Positions 53,416 to 63,448 of a stretch of 64,000 nt of DNA are shown piece after piece. The stretch lies in IMG/VR virus record IMGVR_UViG_3300033146_001382, positions 125,442 to 189,441 of that record. One strand, given 5' to 3'. The notes below the pieces were generated by a model. That model was not told the DNA's origin. It searched no databases and saw only the letters and a list, made by a program, of their open reading frames with translations. The stretch comes from a virus. The translations under genes and the position numbers were made by a program. Position 1 is the stretch's first letter. Each line of letters begins with the position of its first letter.

Positions 53416-53925
53416 ATGTCAGAACATGATTTTTATCAAATTGACCACACTGGAGTTAAAGAGCCTGATAGGTACGTAAATACAAGAACCGATACATCTA
53501 CCCCTATTAGACGTGCTGCTGATGCGAAAATTTCGAATTTTGGTGCAAAAAATATAGGTACTAGAATGGATTCAGACTATACAAGAACTGTACTAGAATT
53601 TGAATCTAAAGACACATTACTAGATCATAATGTGCTCACAGAAGATACTGGTATTGGTAGTAATATTGGGGGAAGAGGAATAAATGTAGATCATAATCCT
53701 TATGTGGACGGCTCTACTGTTAAACGTGTTAGGGATGAACAAGCATTTAGAATTGGTATGTCAGATAATAGAGGCGCAAGTATTGATGCCCCAGGTTTTG
53801 ATGTATCTGATACTAATGTTGTACTGGCAGCTTTAATAGCTGGAAAGAATTGGCCCACAGAGGGTTGGCGTTCTTATGGTGGAAAATATGACTTTACACC
53901 TTATACTGGTGGCGGTATACATTAA
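53416..53925 (+). CDS. Hypothetical protein
   Basis: 169-aa ORF with AAGGAG RBS. No motif recognised. Confidence 0.65.
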   Translation: MSEHDFYQIDHTGVKEPDRYVNTRTDTSTPIRRAADAKISNFGAKNIGTRMDSDYTRTVLEFESKDTLLDHNVLTEDTGIGSNIGGRGINVDHNPYVDGSTVKRVRDEQAFRIGMSDNRGASIDAPGFDVSDTNVVLAALIAGKNWPTEGWRSYGGKYDFTPYTGGGIH

Positions 53926-53945
53926 TTAAGAAAGAGTATAATTAA

Positions 53946-54158
53946 ATGGAAAAGACTTATTGTGAATGTGAGCAATGGAATTTTTATGTAACACATTATC
54001 ATGAAACTTTTTATTGGAATTCTAAAGCAAAGGGCTGGTACGTCCAATGGGTGAACCTCTCAACACGTGAGGGGTACACTCAAGTTTCTAGATATGCTAT
54101 ACCTATGATATTCTGTCCTTTATGTGGCGGTATATTAAATGAACCAGAGGAAGGCTAG
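53946..54158 (+). CDS. Small Cys-containing hypothetical protein
   Basis: CECE...FCPLCG. Confidence 0.55.
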   Translation: MEKTYCECEQWNFYVTHYHETFYWNSKAKGWYVQWVNLSTREGYTQVSRYAIPMIFCPLCGGILNEPEEG

Positions 54159-54167
54159 CTTTTCATT

Positions 54168-54701
54168 ATGGATGATAATACAAATAGAGATCCTGCAATA
54201 AAACTACATTTACAAGAATCTAAGAATATGCAGAAGGAATGGTTTACCTACGCTTTAGACGCCATTCAAAAACTTTCTGATAAGATTGAGGCTACTGTAC
54301 TATCTATACAGAAAGAGCGTGAAGGTTCTTTACTACGTATGGTAGAGCTTCGTGAGCAATTAATGGACCAGCTTACCGTAAATGATAAAAGTAATTCAAT
54401 AGAATGGGCCAATATTAGTAGTAAATTAGATGTGACACTAAAAGAAATAATAGAACGTCTTGCTAAATCAGAAACTGAGACTAATTCACTTTTACAAAAC
54501 TATACCAAGGAGTATGACAATAAGATTAAGGAAGTGTCCACTGCTGTACAATCTACTAGGGATACTCAATTAATAGTAGGGACTAAAGTAAAAGTATATA
54601 TAGCAATGACAGGAATGATTGTAGCCACAGTAATAACGACACTAGCTGGTGGAGCTTTAGTATTATTTAAAGACACCATTAAAGCTTGGATAGGGAGTTA
54701 A
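54168..54701 (+). CDS. Coiled-coil protein with C-terminal transmembrane helix (possibly holin-like or membrane anchor)
   Basis: Heptad-like helical body followed by VYIAMTGMIVATVITTLAGGALVLF. Confidence 0.5.
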   Translation: MDDNTNRDPAIKLHLQESKNMQKEWFTYALDAIQKLSDKIEATVLSIQKEREGSLLRMVELREQLMDQLTVNDKSNSIEWANISSKLDVTLKEIIERLAKSETETNSLLQNYTKEYDNKIKEVSTAVQSTRDTQLIVGTKVKVYIAMTGMIVATVITTLAGGALVLFKDTIKAWIGS

Positions 54702-54704
54702 AAA

Positions 54705-56852
54705 ATGACTCATGACTTAGAAAAACTACGACAATTAACTGAAACTTTGACTAGTAATGGGTATCTTACTGACCAGGCCGCCTCCTGGGAATATGCATTT
54801 GATTCGGTTAAAGCTTTTGTCTGCATTACTAACACCTCATTTAAAGTAAAATACATCAATAAACCTCTCCGTAATACTTTAAATATTAAATCAACTCAGT
54901 GTATAAATAAAGATTTACATACTATCTTAGGTGATAAAGATTTACAAAAAGAACTAGATAGTAATCAAGGGATACAAGATCCTAAAGAAGGGGTTATAAC
55001 CTATCAAGAGTTATTTATAAAATCATTCAATGGTTGGTATGAATCGCATAGACATGATATTACTACAGACCATGGTGAACTTATAGGATATATATATCTG
55101 TTTGTAGATGTCACACAGAAAAGATTAACACTAGAAGCATTGAAAAAGAGTGAAAAAAATTATAGATTATTGTTTGAATCTATGTTAGATGGTTTCGCAC
55201 TACATAAGATGATATTTAATGATGATGGCGAACCATATGATTATGAATTTATAAATGTAAATCCTGCTTTTGAAAAACTAACTGGATTAACTACTAAACA
55301 ATTAGTAAATCATTCTGCATTAGAAGTTTTACCTAAGTTGGAACAACACTGGTTTGATGTTTATATTAAAGTTGTACAGACTGGGGAGTCTTACAGATTT
55401 AGTAATTATTCTGCTGAATTATGTAGATACTATGACGTAGTAGTATTTAGACCTATGCCTGGTTATTTTGCGTGTATAATATCTGATATAACTGATAGGA
55501 CATTAGCAGAAGAGAATCTTCATATGTCAGAAAGACGTTTTCGTGAGATAATTGAAAAGGTAGAAGGTATAGCTATACGAGGGTATGATGATAAATTTAA
55601 TGTAATATTTTGGAATAAGGCATGCGAAACTTTATATGGGTACACTAAACAAGAAGCAGAAGGTGAAAATATAGAGGATTTAACTTTTTTAAAAGGCTTA
55701 AAGGTGCCTGTAGAAGAGTTTTTGGACAATTGGTTTGATGATAAAGAGCCACCATCTGCTCAGGAACTAATTTTAAAAAATAAACTAGGTGAAGACGTTC
55801 ATATATTTTCTTCTAATGTATTGCACCAAGGCGCAAATGGTAAAGAGATGTTTTGTATAGATATTGATTTAAACCCCATTAAAGATGCACAAAAAGCATT
55901 GTATGATACTAATTTACTTTTAAATGGTATACTGAATGCAATACCTGATGTAATAGTAGTACAAGATGCAGATCATAATGTAATTAAACACAATAAGACA
56001 GCAAAAGAGTTCTTTAATGTAACCTCTAAGAAGGCAGAGGGTAAAAAATGTTTTCATTACCTAGGGCGTGGTACAAATTGTACTGATTGTCAGACTGCTA
56101 TAGCTATGGCTACTAAAAAGCCTTCTAAATTAGAAAGGTATATAGAAGAATTACAAGGATGGTTTGATTGTAGATCATACCCTATTTTAGATACTGATGG
56201 TAATGTTACTAAGATAATAGAACACTTGAGAGATATATCAGACTGGAAAAAAGAACAAGAACTATATAAAGAAGTACATTTAAAAGTTGAACAGGCTTTC
56301 CATAGACTAAGATTCATAGTAAGAGCAGTTGATGGCTTTCTATGGGAAAAAACATGGGATATGGAAAAAAATGCATGGGTACTGACTTATGTTGACCCTC
56401 AATTTTGTAGGGAGTTTTATTACTTAAATGGCACTGATGAGGAAGTATGTGAAAAAGCATATGGTAAATCAACTGATAATTTATTACAGTTTGATTTCAA
56501 TGACCTAGATTATAAAAATTCATTTGCAAACGTATGTATGCTCACAGACAAACACTGTCTTGAGCAGGAAGAAGCCAGCGAGTATTTTGAGATGGGTTAT
56601 ATGAATAATGTTTGGACTATTTTAAAGGTAAGAAAAACTCCTCTATATGATGGCCGGGGTAAATGTACAGGTATTCTAGGATTTGCTAAAAATTGTTCTG
56701 ATGACTCTTATTCTATTAAAGAGCTTCTTGAAGTGGGTATACAAACGAATAGAATTAAAAAACTTACTACAGGAAGTAATAGATTAAAATTGTATTGGGT
56801 AGTACAAAGAAAAAATGAAGCAAAAGATTTAACTCATTTAGATTTTCCTTAA
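54705..56852 (+). CDS. Multi-PAS sensor protein (about five PAS/PAC modules) with no recognisable output domain
   Basis: SEKNYRLLFE, NVNPAFEKLTG, SERRFREIIE, WNKACETLYGY, and PAC-like ends FVDVT, ISDIT, LRDIS, KTPLYDGRGKCTGILG. No HisKA/HATPase/GGDEF/EAL motifs. Confidence 0.85.
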   Translation: MTHDLEKLRQLTETLTSNGYLTDQAASWEYAFDSVKAFVCITNTSFKVKYINKPLRNTLNIKSTQCINKDLHTILGDKDLQKELDSNQGIQDPKEGVITYQELFIKSFNGWYESHRHDITTDHGELIGYIYLFVDVTQKRLTLEALKKSEKNYRLLFESMLDGFALHKMIFNDDGEPYDYEFINVNPAFEKLTGLTTKQLVNHSALEVLPKLEQHWFDVYIKVVQTGESYRFSNYSAELCRYYDVVVFRPMPGYFACIISDITDRTLAEENLHMSERRFREIIEKVEGIAIRGYDDKFNVIFWNKACETLYGYTKQEAEGENIEDLTFLKGLKVPVEEFLDNWFDDKEPPSAQELILKNKLGEDVHIFSSNVLHQGANGKEMFCIDIDLNPIKDAQKALYDTNLLLNGILNAIPDVIVVQDADHNVIKHNKTAKEFFNVTSKKAEGKKCFHYLGRGTNCTDCQTAIAMATKKPSKLERYIEELQGWFDCRSYPILDTDGNVTKIIEHLRDISDWKKEQELYKEVHLKVEQAFHRLRFIVRAVDGFLWEKTWDMEKNAWVLTYVDPQFCREFYYLNGTDEEVCEKAYGKSTDNLLQFDFNDLDYKNSFANVCMLTDKHCLEQEEASEYFEMGYMNNVWTILKVRKTPLYDGRGKCTGILGFAKNCSDDSYSIKELLEVGIQTNRIKKLTTGSNRLKLYWVVQRKNEAKDLTHLDFP

Positions 56853-56877
56853 TAGATGAGTAAATTTTAAATAAGGT

Positions 56878-57429
56878 ATTATGGGGCTCCTATAAAAGGA
56901 GAAAAACTATGAAAAGAAATATGAAAGATTTAGTTAAGAAACACAGCTCTATAGGGAGTGTGTTTGCTTCTAATCGTTTCGATGACCTTTTTAGTGAAGT
57001 ATATGCACTAATGGATCATGCTTGGAATGATTGGGACTTAAGTGCTAGTGCGTTTCAAGCACTACAACCTAAAGCAACGTTTCCAAAGATAAACGTAGCA
57101 GAAACTGACACTGAGTATGAAGTTGAGATTGCAATATCTGGGTTTGATAAAGACAACCTAGAGTTGGAATTTAAAGACTCATGTCTATTCATTAAAGCTG
57201 ATAAAGCTGAAGAAGATAATGATACTAATAAAAAGTGGCTAAGAAAGGAAATATCAAGTCGGTCATTCAGACGGGCGTTACAATTCCCATTAAAAATTGA
57301 TAGTACAGCAATTAATAGTTCATATGATGATACTAGAGGTATTGTCACCTGTGTACTACCAAAGCAACTTAAAAAAGAACCAGATGTAGTAAAAATAACA
57401 ATAGACTAAACAAAAGGGAGCCCCATAAT
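56878..57429. repeat. Perfect 13-bp inverted repeat bracketing the Hsp20 gene (56878-56890 / 57417-57429)
   Basis: attatggggctcc and ggagccccataat are exact reverse complements, one in each flanking intergenic region. Confidence 0.9.
56909..57409 (+). CDS. Small heat-shock protein (Hsp20 / alpha-crystallin family)
   Basis: FPKINVAETDTEYEVEIAISGFDK, ISSRSFRR...FP, A-x-Y-x-x-G-like SSYDDTRGIVTCVLPK. Confidence 0.93.
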   Translation: MKRNMKDLVKKHSSIGSVFASNRFDDLFSEVYALMDHAWNDWDLSASAFQALQPKATFPKINVAETDTEYEVEIAISGFDKDNLELEFKDSCLFIKADKAEEDNDTNKKWLRKEISSRSFRRALQFPLKIDSTAINSSYDDTRGIVTCVLPKQLKKEPDVVKITID

Positions 57430-57450
57430 CCCAACACTAAAGGAGAATAT

Positions 57451-57675
57451 ATGGCTAGAAATTTTTATGATTGTGCCAAAAATGGCGGAAAGGTAGTGAG
57501 TAAAAAAACAAAGGAAGGTAAAATGATTAAAGTTTGTTATGACAAAGATGGTAATTCCCATGTAAAATTTAATAATAAGAAAAATAAAAATAGAAATAAA
57601 ATGGCACGAAACACTAAAGCTTCTGTGGCAAGCCTACAGAATTTAGCTGCACATTTCAATAACAATAGACATTAA
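57451..57675 (+). CDS. Small basic hypothetical protein
   Basis: K/N/R-rich 74-aa ORF with AAGGAG RBS. Confidence 0.6.
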   Translation: MARNFYDCAKNGGKVVSKKTKEGKMIKVCYDKDGNSHVKFNNKKNKNRNKMARNTKASVASLQNLAAHFNNNRH

Positions 57676-57690
57676 TAAAGGGATTTACTT

Positions 57691-58164
57691 ATGATAAGAT
57701 TTGAAGATGGAGACGATAACTTAGTAGAAGTATTTTTGGAAGTAATGGAGACTAGATTTCCACATTTTCAGTTTTTAAATTTTAAATTAGTGTATGATTT
57801 AAAGAAAAGAACTAAGAATGGTAAAACTACATTAGCTAGTATAGAACTAGCCTCTCCCAAAATTAAATATTTTTCACAAGATGATAAGGCTTCTGAGGGG
57901 TATGATTACATTTTGTTTATTGACAAGAAAGCTTGGGAGTTATCTAATGATAAAGATAAAAGACGACTTATCTCTCACGAAATGCGCCATGTATTTGTAG
58001 ATGAGAAAGATAAGGCTAAATTGGTAGGGCACGAAATAGAGGACTTCTATCAAGAAATAGAACTAAATAAAGATGACCCAGAATGGGGTCGCAATCTAGT
58101 TAGATTGGTTTCAGATGTTTATGATCAAGAAAAAGAAATGTCTAAACCAAATAAAGGATATTAA
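57691..58164 (+). CDS. Putative phage metallopeptidase-like protein
   Basis: LISHEMRH (HExxH) followed by GHEIEDF. Confidence 0.7.
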   Translation: MIRFEDGDDNLVEVFLEVMETRFPHFQFLNFKLVYDLKKRTKNGKTTLASIELASPKIKYFSQDDKASEGYDYILFIDKKAWELSNDKDKRRLISHEMRHVFVDEKDKAKLVGHEIEDFYQEIELNKDDPEWGRNLVRLVSDVYDQEKEMSKPNKGY

Positions 58165-58175
58165 GGAGTGAGCAT

Positions 58176-58424
58176 ATGAAAGACAAGAAAGAAGTAACTG
58201 CCCATGAGTGGGAAGTAGAAGTAAAGGCTAAACTTGATGAGTTTATTAATAATTTTCTTAGTGTTTCTAAAGAGTGTAATATGGCCACTAAGTATTTTTA
58301 TCCAGAATTGGAAGTATTTGAAACTCATACAGAATATGACAAATCTAAGACTAATGGTGCTGAACTTAGAATAGTTTTTAATTTTGTTGACAATGTTGAC
58401 TTATCCTCAATGAATTTTACTTAA
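58176..58424 (+). CDS. Hypothetical protein
   Basis: 82-aa ORF with AAGGAG RBS. Confidence 0.55.
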   Translation: MKDKKEVTAHEWEVEVKAKLDEFINNFLSVSKECNMATKYFYPELEVFETHTEYDKSKTNGAELRIVFNFVDNVDLSSMNFT

Positions 58425-58456
58425 TTATTTAACCTCATGTATAGTAGGAGTAAATT

Positions 58457-59011
58457 ATGGATAATGGGACTATTTATTTTAGAGATGGTGAGTTAATTAC
58501 AAAGAGTGGTGAAGTTAAAGTGTATCAAATGCAAGATGATTTATTCATGGAGGCCGGTAGGGGCAATCTTATAGCTTCAGACCGAGACTTAAGTGATTAT
58601 ATCTGGCAAATAAATAATAAACCATTTGGTAATTGTTTAGTTGTGGGACTAGGTCTGGGTGTATCAGCTAGGTATATCTCATCCATGGCTAAGGTGGATA
58701 AAGTTACAGTATTAGAAGAAGACGCAGATGTTATTACTGCACAAACTAATGCTACTCCTTTTGATAGTAATAAAATTACTATAATTAATAATAATATTTT
58801 ATCTTTTCTTTACACTACTAAAGAAAAATATAATTTTATTTTTATCGACTGCTACAATATAATTGATGAGGACACCTTCCCAGTTATAGCTGATATAGTA
58901 GCAGCCAGTAAAGTACCATTATCCACGAATGGTATTTTAATAGGGTGGTTAGATAGTAGTACACCTGAAATATTTATAGATGCATTTTATGGGTTATTCA
59001 CACTTCATTAA
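58457..59011 (+). CDS. SAM-dependent methyltransferase, spermidine-synthase-like fold
   Basis: CLVVGLGLG, VTVLE...DVI, YNFIFIDCY. Confidence 0.75.
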   Translation: MDNGTIYFRDGELITKSGEVKVYQMQDDLFMEAGRGNLIASDRDLSDYIWQINNKPFGNCLVVGLGLGVSARYISSMAKVDKVTVLEEDADVITAQTNATPFDSNKITIINNNILSFLYTTKEKYNFIFIDCYNIIDEDTFPVIADIVAASKVPLSTNGILIGWLDSSTPEIFIDAFYGLFTLH

Positions 59012-59026
59012 GGAGACTAATTAAAT

Positions 59027-59410
59027 ATGGAGATATACGACATCTTGGTTGTAGATGATGATTCAGAAGTTGCTATACTTTATGAGGCTTTTATGGAGTT
59101 AATGCCATATTCATTTAAAGTAGCATCATCTGCAGATGATGCTTTAGAACTACTTAAACATACTAAATTTACAGTATTTATATTAGATATAGATTTAGGA
59201 TACAATTCTATGAATGGAGTTGATCTTAGTATCAAAATAAAAGAAATACAGTCTGACGCTAAAGTATATGCCTTAACAGGCCATGCTGGAATTTTTGATG
59301 GGTTTGACCCTGCTATAGCTGGTTTTGATGAGGTATTTAGTAAACCTTTTGGGTATAAGAATTTAATTATATTATTAAAAAGTATACTAGGTGATAGGAC
59401 TGCTAAATAG
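59027..59410 (+). CDS. Stand-alone response-regulator receiver (CheY-like) domain protein
   Basis: ILVVDDD, phospho-acceptor in ILDIDL, MNGVDL, ALTG, AGFDEVFSKPF. All canonical D/D/T/K residues are present. Confidence 0.9.
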   Translation: MEIYDILVVDDDSEVAILYEAFMELMPYSFKVASSADDALELLKHTKFTVFILDIDLGYNSMNGVDLSIKIKEIQSDAKVYALTGHAGIFDGFDPAIAGFDEVFSKPFGYKNLIILLKSILGDRTAK

Positions 59411-59539
59411 TTTAAGGGCTAGTTTATATTAATGTATAAGTGTGCCATCACTCACTAACTTGATATCTACCCCTTATTGCACAGCCATTAGGCTGAAATA
59501 ATTAAGTTTAATAAAAAAATAAAAGGAGGAAATTTGACT

Positions 59540-61348
59540 ATGGCTCTATTTGGAGTTGAAAATGGAGTAAGGATAGAAACCTCAGACGGTAATGCAGATT
59601 TATTGTTTGGAGTGTCTGACCCTTCTGTAGTCGGAAAAGCTGCCCCAGAGGGCTCTTTATATCTAAGATCTAATGGAGTGTCTTACAAAAAGACAGGACC
59701 AGGTGATTATGATTGGGAGTTAGCTTCACAAGCTGAAGGCGCAGCTATAGGTTATGTATTCATAACTGACGTTACTAATGTAGGCAATATAGGTTCTGAA
59801 TCTTATGTTGCTAACACAGTACCAGCCGACACTGTTTTAACAGAATGTACTACAGACACTACAGATGTTACGATAGCTTTTCTTGCAGAACCAGCAGGTT
59901 TTTATAGCCCTACTCTTTCTATTAGTGGCGTCAATTGTACAAATTTAGCTCAATATGGGGATGATAGACGTCTCTTTAGTGGATCTATTGGAGTAACTTT
60001 AACATGCGCTGCCGGAGAACATCAAGATTTTGTAGTAGAAAGTTCTACTGGTCAAAGTACAACAGTTAGAATTAATAGAGCTGGTGCAGGACCAGAGATT
60101 ACTGCAATAGTTTTTGGCTCATACCCAGGAACACAGACAGATTTAAAAAATAATGATCAGATTGGTGTAACTGTTACGGTAGCTAATGATGCTTCATCTG
60201 TATGGATAGAAGCAGATAAAGCTTCTAAAACACTAGTCAACTTAACGTTGGGAGCAGTAGATGGGGCAGGTGTTGGTTATAGACATGCAACTGGTACTAT
60301 TACTATCTCTTCTATAGCTTCAGACGCACCAGTTGATGCCCAGGCAGAAAATACATTAGGGACTAAAGGGGATGTATTTACCTCTAGTGACTTAAGTATT
60401 GATCAGGTTTATCCTACCATTACCTTTAATTCTATTACGTATCCAACAACACAGGGTGCGATTAAAAATAGTGAGACTGCAGATGTTAATGTTTCTGTAA
60501 CTAATTGGGTTTCAGGTACCGATACTATTACTTATAGTACCCCACTTAATCAGATCTCTATTCCTGGTACTACTATTTACGCTCAAACTAAAACTGTTAC
60601 TAGAATTGCTGGGGATTATAATGTAAGTTCTAATAATTATAGTATATCAGCAACTAAAGTTAATAATGATGCAACTAGGTCTGCCAGTTATAATGTCAGA
60701 ATAGCACATGTTGCAGCGCAATTAGCAGTTAATGAGCCAGCAGCTAGACTCAGGACAGGAGGTACTGGTTTTTCTAATGTAGGTCTTACGACAGCAGCTT
60801 CTACAGCTGAACATACTATTACTATAGCAGCTAATCAGATTCTAAACGCAGTTCCTACTCTTGCTAATCCAAGTGCTGGGACTGGTAGTTGGAAGAATGG
60901 TGCTTTTGCTAATGCTGGTGGTATGGCGTCTTTTACTAATACCATACAACTACCAGATGATAGTACTCGTGGCACACATTCTTGGGGTGCTATTAGTGGA
61001 GTTAATCTTGCAGGTATTACTACTTCAGCTATTACTGGTAATAGTTCTTATGTTATTGGTGGTTTTCTACCGAGATACTATAGATTGGTTCTTGGTCAGA
61101 ATGAAAGTTCTGGTGCAGTTGAAACAACTACATATACTAAATTTACACTTGATTGGCAAGCAACTAATGGGAATGGACAAGTTAAGTCCCTATCTAGGGC
61201 AGCCACTATTAATACTGCACCGCCAGTAACTGGTCAGTATACTATTGATGCTGTAGATGGTAATCCTACTAAGTTTATTATTTTAGACACAGCAGCTACA
61301 CAGGGACAAACTGTGGATTCTGCAATACGTGTAGAGGAGGTCGTGTAA
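59540..61348 (+). CDS. Putative virion structural protein, T/S/G/A-rich with Ig-like beta-sandwich repeats
   Basis: Very T/A/G-rich, with alternating beta patterns and an N-terminal APEGSLYLRSNG motif seen in fibre-type proteins. Function inferred. Confidence 0.45.
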   Translation: MALFGVENGVRIETSDGNADLLFGVSDPSVVGKAAPEGSLYLRSNGVSYKKTGPGDYDWELASQAEGAAIGYVFITDVTNVGNIGSESYVANTVPADTVLTECTTDTTDVTIAFLAEPAGFYSPTLSISGVNCTNLAQYGDDRRLFSGSIGVTLTCAAGEHQDFVVESSTGQSTTVRINRAGAGPEITAIVFGSYPGTQTDLKNNDQIGVTVTVANDASSVWIEADKASKTLVNLTLGAVDGAGVGYRHATGTITISSIASDAPVDAQAENTLGTKGDVFTSSDLSIDQVYPTITFNSITYPTTQGAIKNSETADVNVSVTNWVSGTDTITYSTPLNQISIPGTTIYAQTKTVTRIAGDYNVSSNNYSISATKVNNDATRSASYNVRIAHVAAQLAVNEPAARLRTGGTGFSNVGLTTAASTAEHTITIAANQILNAVPTLANPSAGTGSWKNGAFANAGGMASFTNTIQLPDDSTRGTHSWGAISGVNLAGITTSAITGNSSYVIGGFLPRYYRLVLGQNESSGAVETTTYTKFTLDWQATNGNGQVKSLSRAATINTAPPVTGQYTIDAVDGNPTKFIILDTAATQGQTVDSAIRVEEVV

Positions 61349-63047: not shown

Positions 63048-63085
63048 ATCAAGAAAGTATGAAGTATAATAAGGAGGATTTAAGA

Positions 63086-63448
63086 ATGGAGCTAGATGTT
63101 AATTGGTTATGGATTACTTTAGTTTTACCGGTGGCAATAGGTATATTTAAGAATGAAATTGGGAGATTTTTTTCTGACTATGCCACATATCAAAATAGGA
63201 TGTTTGACACTGATGGAGACCCAGGCACAGGACAGTATTGCTATATACAAAGCAGTGCTACTGGGGAGTATGTAAAAATCTATATAGATGATTACAAATT
63301 TGGGTTAGCTCCTAGTGATAGGAAAGTAATTACTTTTCAAGATGATCCAGACGGAACAGGTAATAAAATTATAGTGGTGCCTTACTCATACACTCAATGG
63401 AAGGGTATTATAAAAGGCTCATTACAAAGAGAATTCATAAAAAAATAG
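63086..63448 (+). CDS. Hypothetical protein with N-terminal transmembrane segment
   Basis: WLWITLVLPVAIGIF after an AAGGAGG RBS. Confidence 0.6.
   Translation: MELDVNWLWITLVLPVAIGIFKNEIGRFFSDYATYQNRMFDTDGDPGTGQYCYIQSSATGEYVKIYIDDYKFGLAPSDRKVITFQDDPDGTGNKIIVVPYSYTQWKGIIKGSLQREFIKK

Follow-up and report, generated by a model that had tools for sequence, protein, structure and literature searches.

A PAS-only protein, its tail-anchored partner and a free receiver

The 64,000-nucleotide stretch analysed here (the window) is the final 64 kb of a linear 189,441-bp IMG/VR virus record rated 72% complete, and its gene content fits a large tailed phage, with nucleotide-metabolism and replication genes upstream of the module described below and a tail sheath gene downstream. 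The module comprises three plus-strand genes, which encode a 177-residue tail-anchored coiled-coil protein (the anchor; 54168..54701), a 715-residue protein of five PAS folds and no output domain (the PAS-only protein; 54705..56852) and a 127-residue single-domain response regulator with acceptor D54 (the receiver; 59027..59410). We tentatively interpret these genes as conserved parts of a phage-borne His-Asp signalling network, whose contacts, cofactor, phosphate flow and downstream target we infer. Every contig compared, from this phage and from its relatives alike, is incomplete.

Searches of the PAS-only protein against Pfam return PAS families and nothing else, namely PAS_9 (100.6 bits against a cut-off of 27), PAS_4 (88.9 against 23.1), PAS_8 (64.6 against 21.8) and PAS_3 (31.9 against 25.6), with the matches covering domains 2-4, domain 1 more weakly and domain 5 not at all. 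An AlphaFold model built with nine family members contains five PAS-like alpha/beta modules spanning residues 24-135, 150-261, 285-388, 405-510 and 545-663, and the last of these is assigned to the PAS fold by Foldseek and VIA-align. The initial annotation had described a protein of five PAS domains without an output domain, and that description holds, four of the domains being recognized by Pfam and the fifth by fold search.

The protein opens with an N-terminal cap (residues 1-34) that runs into PAS1 (residues 24-135), the two together occupying 54705..55109 on the plus strand, as do all further domains of this protein. Defined from the family alignment and the model, the cap is very strongly conserved, with L5, L8, L11, T12, S17-L21, D23, Q24, W28, A31, F32 and S34 invariant. 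PAS2 (residues 150-261; 55152..55487), delimited by the model and by sequence matches, shares 52-53% identity with a PAS domain that occurs within bacterial histidine kinases and HD-GYP/GGDEF proteins. PAS3 (residues 285-388; 55557..55868), matched by PAS_3 with 31.9 bits at residues 300-384 and modelled with a low predicted local distance difference test (pLDDT) score, is an insertion that appears in the family alignment only in this phage and in its closest relative, whose PAS-only protein is 79% identical.

PAS4 (residues 405-510; 55917..56234) is the best-conserved domain of the family and, from the alignment and the model, a candidate metal or iron-sulphur (Fe-S) site. Its motif, C449-x9-C459-x2-C462-x26-C489-R-S-Y-P, is invariant in 13 of 13 family members, short 400-residue forms included, and the model's secondary structure would place the cysteines on the E-alpha and F-alpha helices and on the H-beta strand, elements that line the usual PAS cofactor pocket. 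Because PAS4 carries this invariant four-cysteine pocket, the PAS-only protein probably senses redox state or a metal through a presumed cofactor. A sequence search of solved structures with PAS4 gave zero matches. The PAS domain of OrpR from Desulfovibrio vulgaris binds a [4Fe-4S] cluster via C52-x8-C61-x3-C65 (PMC8359166), a motif with the same 13-residue span from first to third cysteine as PAS4 but with a different internal spacing; the likeness is an analogy rather than a shared membership. The Fe-S PAS motif of NreB, CX2CX11C(X2C) (PMC13478379), does not fit the C-x9-C-x2-C-x26-C arrangement of PAS4, and PAS4 differs from both proteins in having a fourth invariant cysteine, located on a beta strand.

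PAS5 (residues 545-663), which with a following helix, hairpin and the C-terminal end occupies 56337..56849, has no Pfam match and is recognized by its fold. Folded alone with 35 homologues, it reaches a pLDDT of 90.5 and a predicted template modelling score (pTM) of 0.85, and both Foldseek and the Foldseek-independent VIA-align return PAS/LOV domains only, with E values down to 1.1e-5 and Z scores of 10.4-7.7. A profile search of the same region against solved structures yielded insignificant matches only, and the other domains carried by its 92 detectable homologues are exclusively PAS or GAF. Near the top of the fold matches are the VqmA proteins of Vibrio and of vibriophage VP882 (7dwm; Foldseek E 2.3e-5, VIA-align Z 10.1), the latter being, like the PAS-only protein, a phage-encoded cytoplasmic PAS sensor. 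VqmA, however, joins one PAS domain to a DNA-binding output, whereas the protein described here has five PAS domains, no output and a membrane-anchored partner, and identity between the two is ~15%. Beyond PAS5 lies a conserved tail of ~50 residues that ends in LTHLDFP here and follows the pattern LTH(L/V/I)(D/N)F(P/F) across the family.

The anchor gene ends 3 nt before the start codon of the PAS gene, in agreement with the initial annotation, which had placed the PAS gene directly behind a coiled-coil protein with a C-terminal membrane anchor. Hydropathy gives the anchor a single hydrophobic, transmembrane (TM) segment at residues 141-169, and residues 1-140 are predicted to be cytoplasmic. 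No Pfam or PHROG family matched the protein, and in the Atlas it falls only into unnamed phage clusters (score 0.91). The pairing is strict: in seven of seven loci an anchor orthologue lies directly upstream of the PAS gene, separated from it by -1 to 11 nt, and in IMG/VR only four contigs carry the anchor family, each of them together with the PAS-only protein.

The receiver begins 2,175 nt past the end of the PAS gene and matches Response_reg (PF00072) with 61 bits against a cut-off of 30.2 over profile positions 1-108 of 111. Its switch residues D10, D11, D54, T84 and K106 are all intact, which bears out the earlier description of a CheY-like receiver some 2.2 kb downstream with a complete D/D/T/K set. 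In HMMER alignments to solved receivers D54 falls on the acceptor aspartate of YycF, followed by a 2-residue loop insertion, and in 13 receiver orthologues D11, D54, T84 and K106 never vary and D10 hardly does. D56, reached by counting from the conserved loop glycine, was considered as the acceptor and rejected, this position being asparagine in several orthologues while D54 is invariant and aligned. The best sequence matches among solved structures are 3crn (a stand-alone CheY-like receiver), YycF and Spo0F. Like the single-domain response regulators CheY, Spo0F, DivK and CpdR (PF00072), the protein has ~125 residues, the receiver fold only and the five switch residues; unlike them, it is phage-encoded and carries the 2-residue insertion after the acceptor aspartate. 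Its orthologues were found on phage-like contigs only. The genome encodes two receiver domains, one within the hybrid kinase described below and the other this 127-residue protein, the only free receiver, and neither belongs to a response regulator with an output domain. PHROG 5982, a family of 1030 positions with no assigned function, matches both the PAS-only protein (positions 140-303) and the receiver (positions 870-988), and looks like an unnamed family of phage-encoded hybrid kinases.

All three genes are under purifying selection. Compared with the closest relative, the proportion of nonsynonymous differences (pN) is far below that of synonymous differences (pS) for every gene, with values of 0.126 and 0.704, respectively, for the PAS gene; the PAS gene has a ratio of nonsynonymous to synonymous substitution rates (dN/dS) of 0.066, the receiver gene one of 0.067 and the anchor gene one of 0.11, figures that are rough since dS is saturated in this comparison. 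Searches of deposited phage genomes with tblastn found no close relative of either the PAS-only protein (best identity 24%) or the receiver (at most 31.5%). Scanned against IMG/VR as a single sequence, the PAS-only protein gave zero matches; its relatives were recovered by an alignment-based scan.

Conservation in related phages and the gene neighbourhood

As to co-occurrence in related phages, a point raised in the initial annotation, at least seven related lineages encode both the anchor and PAS-only pair and the receiver, at 32-79% identity. Members of the PAS-only family at 79, 43, 42, 38, ~36 and 32% identity come from contigs of different samples, and the architecture of N-terminal cap, four-cysteine PAS domain and C-terminal tail is kept across 13 sequences. 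The PAS-only protein and the receiver are both present in every relative long enough to judge. Six lineages also share the gene order, which runs from a dCMP deaminase through a ~170-residue and a ~70-residue gene product to the anchor and the PAS-only protein, and then through Hsp20 (sometimes absent), a metallopeptidase, an 82-residue protein and a methyltransferase-like protein to the receiver and the tail sheath.

Among these relatives, the 238-kb contig G003 (87% complete) encodes the anchor, a PAS-only protein at 42% identity and an orthologous receiver at 44% identity. It has no PAS protein besides the PAS-only one, and no HATPase_c, HisKA or Hpt domain was found on it, an absence that on an incomplete contig is not proof. 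We read the anchor and PAS-only protein as the oldest and most constant unit, with the receiver retained alongside.

In the window, the block 53416-59410 looks like one transcription unit because its intergenic gaps measure 3-56 nt and it is followed by a 123-nt gap with a strong ribosome-binding site, a Shine-Dalgarno sequence that precedes the sheath gene. A promoter and terminator scan of 52-62.5 kb found no excess over shuffled sequence. Directly upstream of the anchor gene, a 70-residue cysteine-rich protein (53946..54158, plus strand) with a CxC...CPLC pattern appears zinc-ribbon-like from its sequence; no Pfam or PHROG family matched it, and a gene for 66-72 residues occupies its position in relatives L014, L016, L021, L022 and L026, though not in L023.

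Between the PAS gene and the receiver, the initial annotation had placed an Hsp20, a HExxH protein and a methyltransferase, and all three are there, the last with weak support. The Hsp20 small heat-shock protein (56909..57409, plus strand; 61.8 bits) starts 56 nt after the PAS gene and is absent in relatives L021 and L026. The HExxH protein (57691..58164, plus strand), a conserved neighbour, is a putative phage metallopeptidase of family PF18894 (PhageMetallopep; 73 bits) with HEMRH at residue 96. The third, likewise conserved, is a 184-residue class-I methyltransferase- or spermidine-synthase-like protein (58457..59011, plus strand) with a below-cut-off RrnaAD match of 19.9 bits and a PHROG methyltransferase match at 3.8e-5, and the relatives' versions of the gene give Spermine_synth matches. 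Further small genes encode a 74-residue protein after Hsp20 and an 82-residue protein after the metallopeptidase. At the end of the block and outside the signalling set lies the tail sheath gene (59534..61348, plus strand; 604 residues, TTG start; PHROG 15433 at 1e-58). Both here, where the sheath comes next, and in G003, where it follows a terminase-like gene, the receiver gene borders a block of late or structural genes.

Two observations concern the contigs more broadly. A 134-residue gene product encoded near the start of this contig (G000:C1:5482-5886) has a 75%-identical counterpart in a relative (L036:603-998), directly beside the counterpart of window positions 63059-63448, which lie near the end of this contig; either the gene has moved or the two ends of this contig adjoin in the real genome. 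The relatives also carry mobile elements, in the form of a ribonucleotide reductase with a LAGLIDADG intein, an RNase HII gene enlarged by LAGLIDADG and a TnpB/Cas12f-like OrfB (L014:1-1481; L016:530-2242; L016:21759-21782).

A kinase island elsewhere in the genome

The initial annotation had also listed no kinase, with no HisKA/HATPase visible in the window. This is correct for the 64-kb window, in which neither HATPase_c nor HisKA was found, and does not extend to the genome, which encodes an intact hybrid histidine kinase of 947 residues at G000:C1:8716-11559; in phage genomes of 190-320 kb, the lack of a kinase nearby is a weak argument. The kinase begins with a signal/TM segment and a further TM segment that flank a periplasmic SBP_bac_3 domain; two PAS domains come next, then HisKA (42.6 bits) and HATPase_c (84.7 bits), and a REC domain at the end. 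Its H, N and G boxes are all there. BvgS and EvgS are hybrid kinases with periplasmic solute-binding (Venus-flytrap) sensor domains, and the phage kinase resembles them in its order of signal/TM, SBP_bac_3, TM, PAS, HisKA, HATPase_c and REC, while differing in having one solute-binding domain, two PAS domains and no C-terminal Hpt. A close homologue was found only in the closest relative (75% identity). The next-best matches are cellular proteins of Thermodesulfobacteriota/Desulfobacterales at 33-45% identity, which suggests that the kinase was captured from a host of the Desulfobacterota phylum, the phylum from which OrpR also comes.

Two kilobases past the kinase gene lie the genes for a 217-residue PAS-HisKA protein (the PAS-DHp protein; G000:C1:13548-14201), which keeps the H-box histidine and lacks an ATPase domain, and for an 82-residue PilZ protein (G000:C1:14211-14459), both outside the window. 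No GGDEF domain was found in this genome, and any cyclic di-GMP read by PilZ would therefore be host-made. No match to Hpt (PF01627) was found at E values up to 1 in this incomplete genome, whereas control genomes gave matches, and none was found in five related contigs. The PAS-DHp protein matches the DHp domain of RetS (6dk7) at E 4e-4, a weak similarity that is generic for HisKA helices; by analogy with RetS and GacS, a DHp domain without a catalytic domain could pair with that of another kinase, although RetS is a large membrane hybrid protein, unlike this one. Identity between the DHp domains of the PAS-DHp protein and the kinase is 26% over the PAS-DHp junction and is uninformative. Derivation of the PAS-only protein as a copy of the kinase's sensor was considered and rejected, the two showing no specific PAS similarity (best E 7e-4).

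A single 318,366-bp contig of the closest relative encodes kinase, PAS-only protein and receiver, and the PAS-DHp protein (56% identity) and PilZ (L018:18657-18908) are retained there as well. This relative encodes a second PAS-HisKA protein, of 234 residues and again without an ATPase domain (L034:1411-2115, minus strand; ~76.4 kb on G001), within a region of ~38 kb past the end point of the present contig that has no counterpart here. Because this second gene lies beyond the contig end, further signalling genes, perhaps including a second PAS-DHp gene, may be encoded in the missing 28% of the present genome. One branch seems to have gained the kinase island later. The relative's island also contains a 1033-residue protein (L018:14871-17972) that matches F5/8 type C and, weakly, S41 peptidase, and a caspase-like Peptidase_C14 protein (L018:18939-19802), and at that place the present phage has a minus-strand HprK-like P-loop gene.

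Phosphorelay, host interference or independent parts

The intact receiver, the conserved PAS array and the presence of a kinase led us to the network reading introduced above. In this scheme, the PAS-only protein would serve as a cytoplasmic multi-input sensor built only of PAS folds, made together with the anchor and probably held by it at the inner membrane. Because it has no output domain it must act by protein contacts, most probably with histidine kinases, through their PAS or DHp regions, or with the anchor. The receiver would be phosphorylatable in the manner of CheY, Spo0F and DivK and could act as a diffusible switch or relay element. In the minimal form of the system, comprising the PAS-only protein, the anchor and the receiver, host kinases or acetyl phosphate would supply the phosphoryl groups. 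The present phage and its closest relative may have gone further, through a captured Desulfobacterota-type hybrid kinase with a periplasmic solute-binding sensor and one or two PAS-DHp proteins, which together could give a phage-owned His-Asp-His-Asp relay ending on the receiver, in which the DHp-only protein would take the place of the absent Hpt. The receiver was thus probably fed by host kinases ancestrally and is probably fed by the phage's own kinase here.

DHp-type phosphorelays are known from CckA-ChpT-CtrA/CpdR of Caulobacter and KinA-Spo0F-Spo0B-Spo0A of Bacillus. The phage set resembles them in its receiver-ended hybrid kinase, a small HisKA-type histidine protein, a single-domain receiver and no Hpt found, and differs in that its parts are scattered over ~170 kb. 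The DHp-type phosphotransferases ChpT and Spo0B, moreover, have a degenerate CA-like domain, whereas the phage protein consists of PAS and DHp only, and this counts against a role as phosphotransferase, as does the HEVSQ that follows its histidine in place of the usual HExxT/N.

Several further observations weigh against a joint function of these parts. The kinase island lies ~170 kb upstream of the PAS gene and receiver on this contig, and gene order suggests no joint function. The PAS domains of the PAS-only protein are not specifically similar to those of the kinase, and the alpha-1 region of the receiver is unlike that of the kinase's own receiver domain. In G003, the receiver is 147 kb from the PAS gene, beside a terminase-like gene, and gene order is collinear throughout this region in these phages, such that the adjacency of PAS gene and receiver may be inherited order rather than coupling. 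The initial annotation had noted that a cognate kinase elsewhere in the genome would make this an ordinary two-component system. A kinase has indeed been found there, as a candidate partner of the receiver; the two are not an operon pair, and their co-occurrence is limited to this phage and one relative, with no kinase found on the 87%-complete G003, which falls short of classical two-component pairing.

These points bear on two other readings of the locus. The parts may act purely on host two-component systems, with the PAS array as a dominant-negative or scaffold, the receiver as a phosphate sink and the phage kinase as an unrelated add-on. G003, at 87% completeness, keeps the PAS-only protein and the receiver while no kinase, HisKA or Hpt was found on it; the 52-53% identity of PAS2 to PAS domains of bacterial kinases and HD-GYP proteins means that mixed dimers could form; the kinase island is far from the module; and PIT4 of phage LSL4 is reported to perturb several host two-component systems (PMC10714779). 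As an account of the present phage we nevertheless find this explanation rather unlikely, given that this genome and that of the closest relative encode, in addition to the module, an intact hybrid kinase and DHp-only proteins, the obvious candidate phosphodonors for a receiver that would otherwise be an orphan, and that where no Hpt is detected a kinase with a terminal receiver domain needs a downstream acceptor. The earlier proposal that the phage taps or jams host signalling hence survives for the older, kinase-less form represented by G003, and jamming of the host is a live rival and the default model for the kinase-less relatives, whereas the present phage has a kinase of its own. Somewhat less probable still is that the PAS and anchor pair and the receiver are unrelated neighbours, the pair being a self-contained sensor and membrane effector for lysis timing or another late step and the receiver having a role of its own. 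The inseparability of anchor and PAS-only protein would fit, set beside a receiver that has moved 147 kb in G003 and an Hsp20 gene that comes and goes, as would the collinearity of the whole region among relatives; yet the PAS-only protein and the receiver are jointly retained wherever this could be judged, and the pair is flanked by DNA-metabolism genes, Hsp20 and the metallopeptidase, with no endolysin, holin or spanin gene beside it in any of seven loci. The coupling to lysis that the initial annotation had envisaged accordingly finds no support among the neighbours.

The remaining alternatives concern single genes. The 127-residue protein passes the Pfam cut-off for cREC_REC (PF20274; 30.6 bits against 27), and cREC was defined in jumbo phages, where it is linked to NAD/ADP-ribose-processing genes and reported never to accompany histidine-kinase systems (PMC7824862). 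It could on that basis be, instead of a phospho-acceptor, an enzyme of phage-host conflict that acts on cyclic phosphate or ADP-ribose-derived nucleotides, but we regard this as very improbable: the cREC profile is matched only in part (positions 3-59 of 88), Response_reg reaches double that score over the full domain, T84 and K106 of the classical switch are invariant, the best solved relatives (3crn, YycF and Spo0F) are classical, no NAD/ADP-ribose-processing gene adjoins it in any locus, and there is a kinase in the genome. Decay of a captured host kinase gene, which the initial annotation had raised for the PAS gene as a truncated pseudogene, is brought to mind by the close likeness of PAS2 to PAS domains of bacterial kinases. 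It is scarcely credible for a gene whose intact frame and architecture persist in 13 sequences, at identities as low as 32%, with the C-terminal end conserved, a dN/dS of ~0.07 and pN well under pS, and which is followed not by a HisKA or HATPase remnant but by the Hsp20 gene.

The network reading, of conserved phage-borne His-Asp signalling parts, is therefore the one we carry forward, tentatively. In its most extended version, which we think unlikely to hold in full, a jumbo-phage clade owns a membrane-tethered Fe-S or redox five-PAS sensor and a free receiver that reads host kinases, and one sub-lineage extends this to a full virus-encoded His-Asp-His-Asp relay that starts from a periplasmic solute sensor and uses DHp-only proteins for Hpt. 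In bacteria, stand-alone receivers, PAS arrays and hybrid kinases are commonplace, and PHROGs already holds unnamed phage families that match the receiver, PAS and kinase parts. Our literature search found no description of a conserved output-less five-PAS protein with a four-cysteine PAS domain and an obligate tail-anchored partner, of the anchor and PAS-only pair combined with a free receiver across a phage clade, or of a branch with a periplasm-sensing hybrid kinase, DHp-only proteins, no Hpt and no DNA-binding regulator.

In the usual view, phages read the state of the host with a small number of dedicated repressors or quorum receptors. The lineage of very large phages described here keeps bacterial-type signalling parts without transcriptional output under purifying selection, and the four-cysteine PAS domain and the obligate membrane-anchored partner provide concrete, testable handles on what these parts do. 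If the parts cooperate, they would constitute a virus-owned phosphorelay with unusual wiring, having neither an Hpt nor a DNA-binding regulator, and a clear example of viral sensing of the surroundings beyond the infected cell. Should the extended relay prove true, the virus would sense both the outside and the inside of the cell it infects and adjust its own programme in response.

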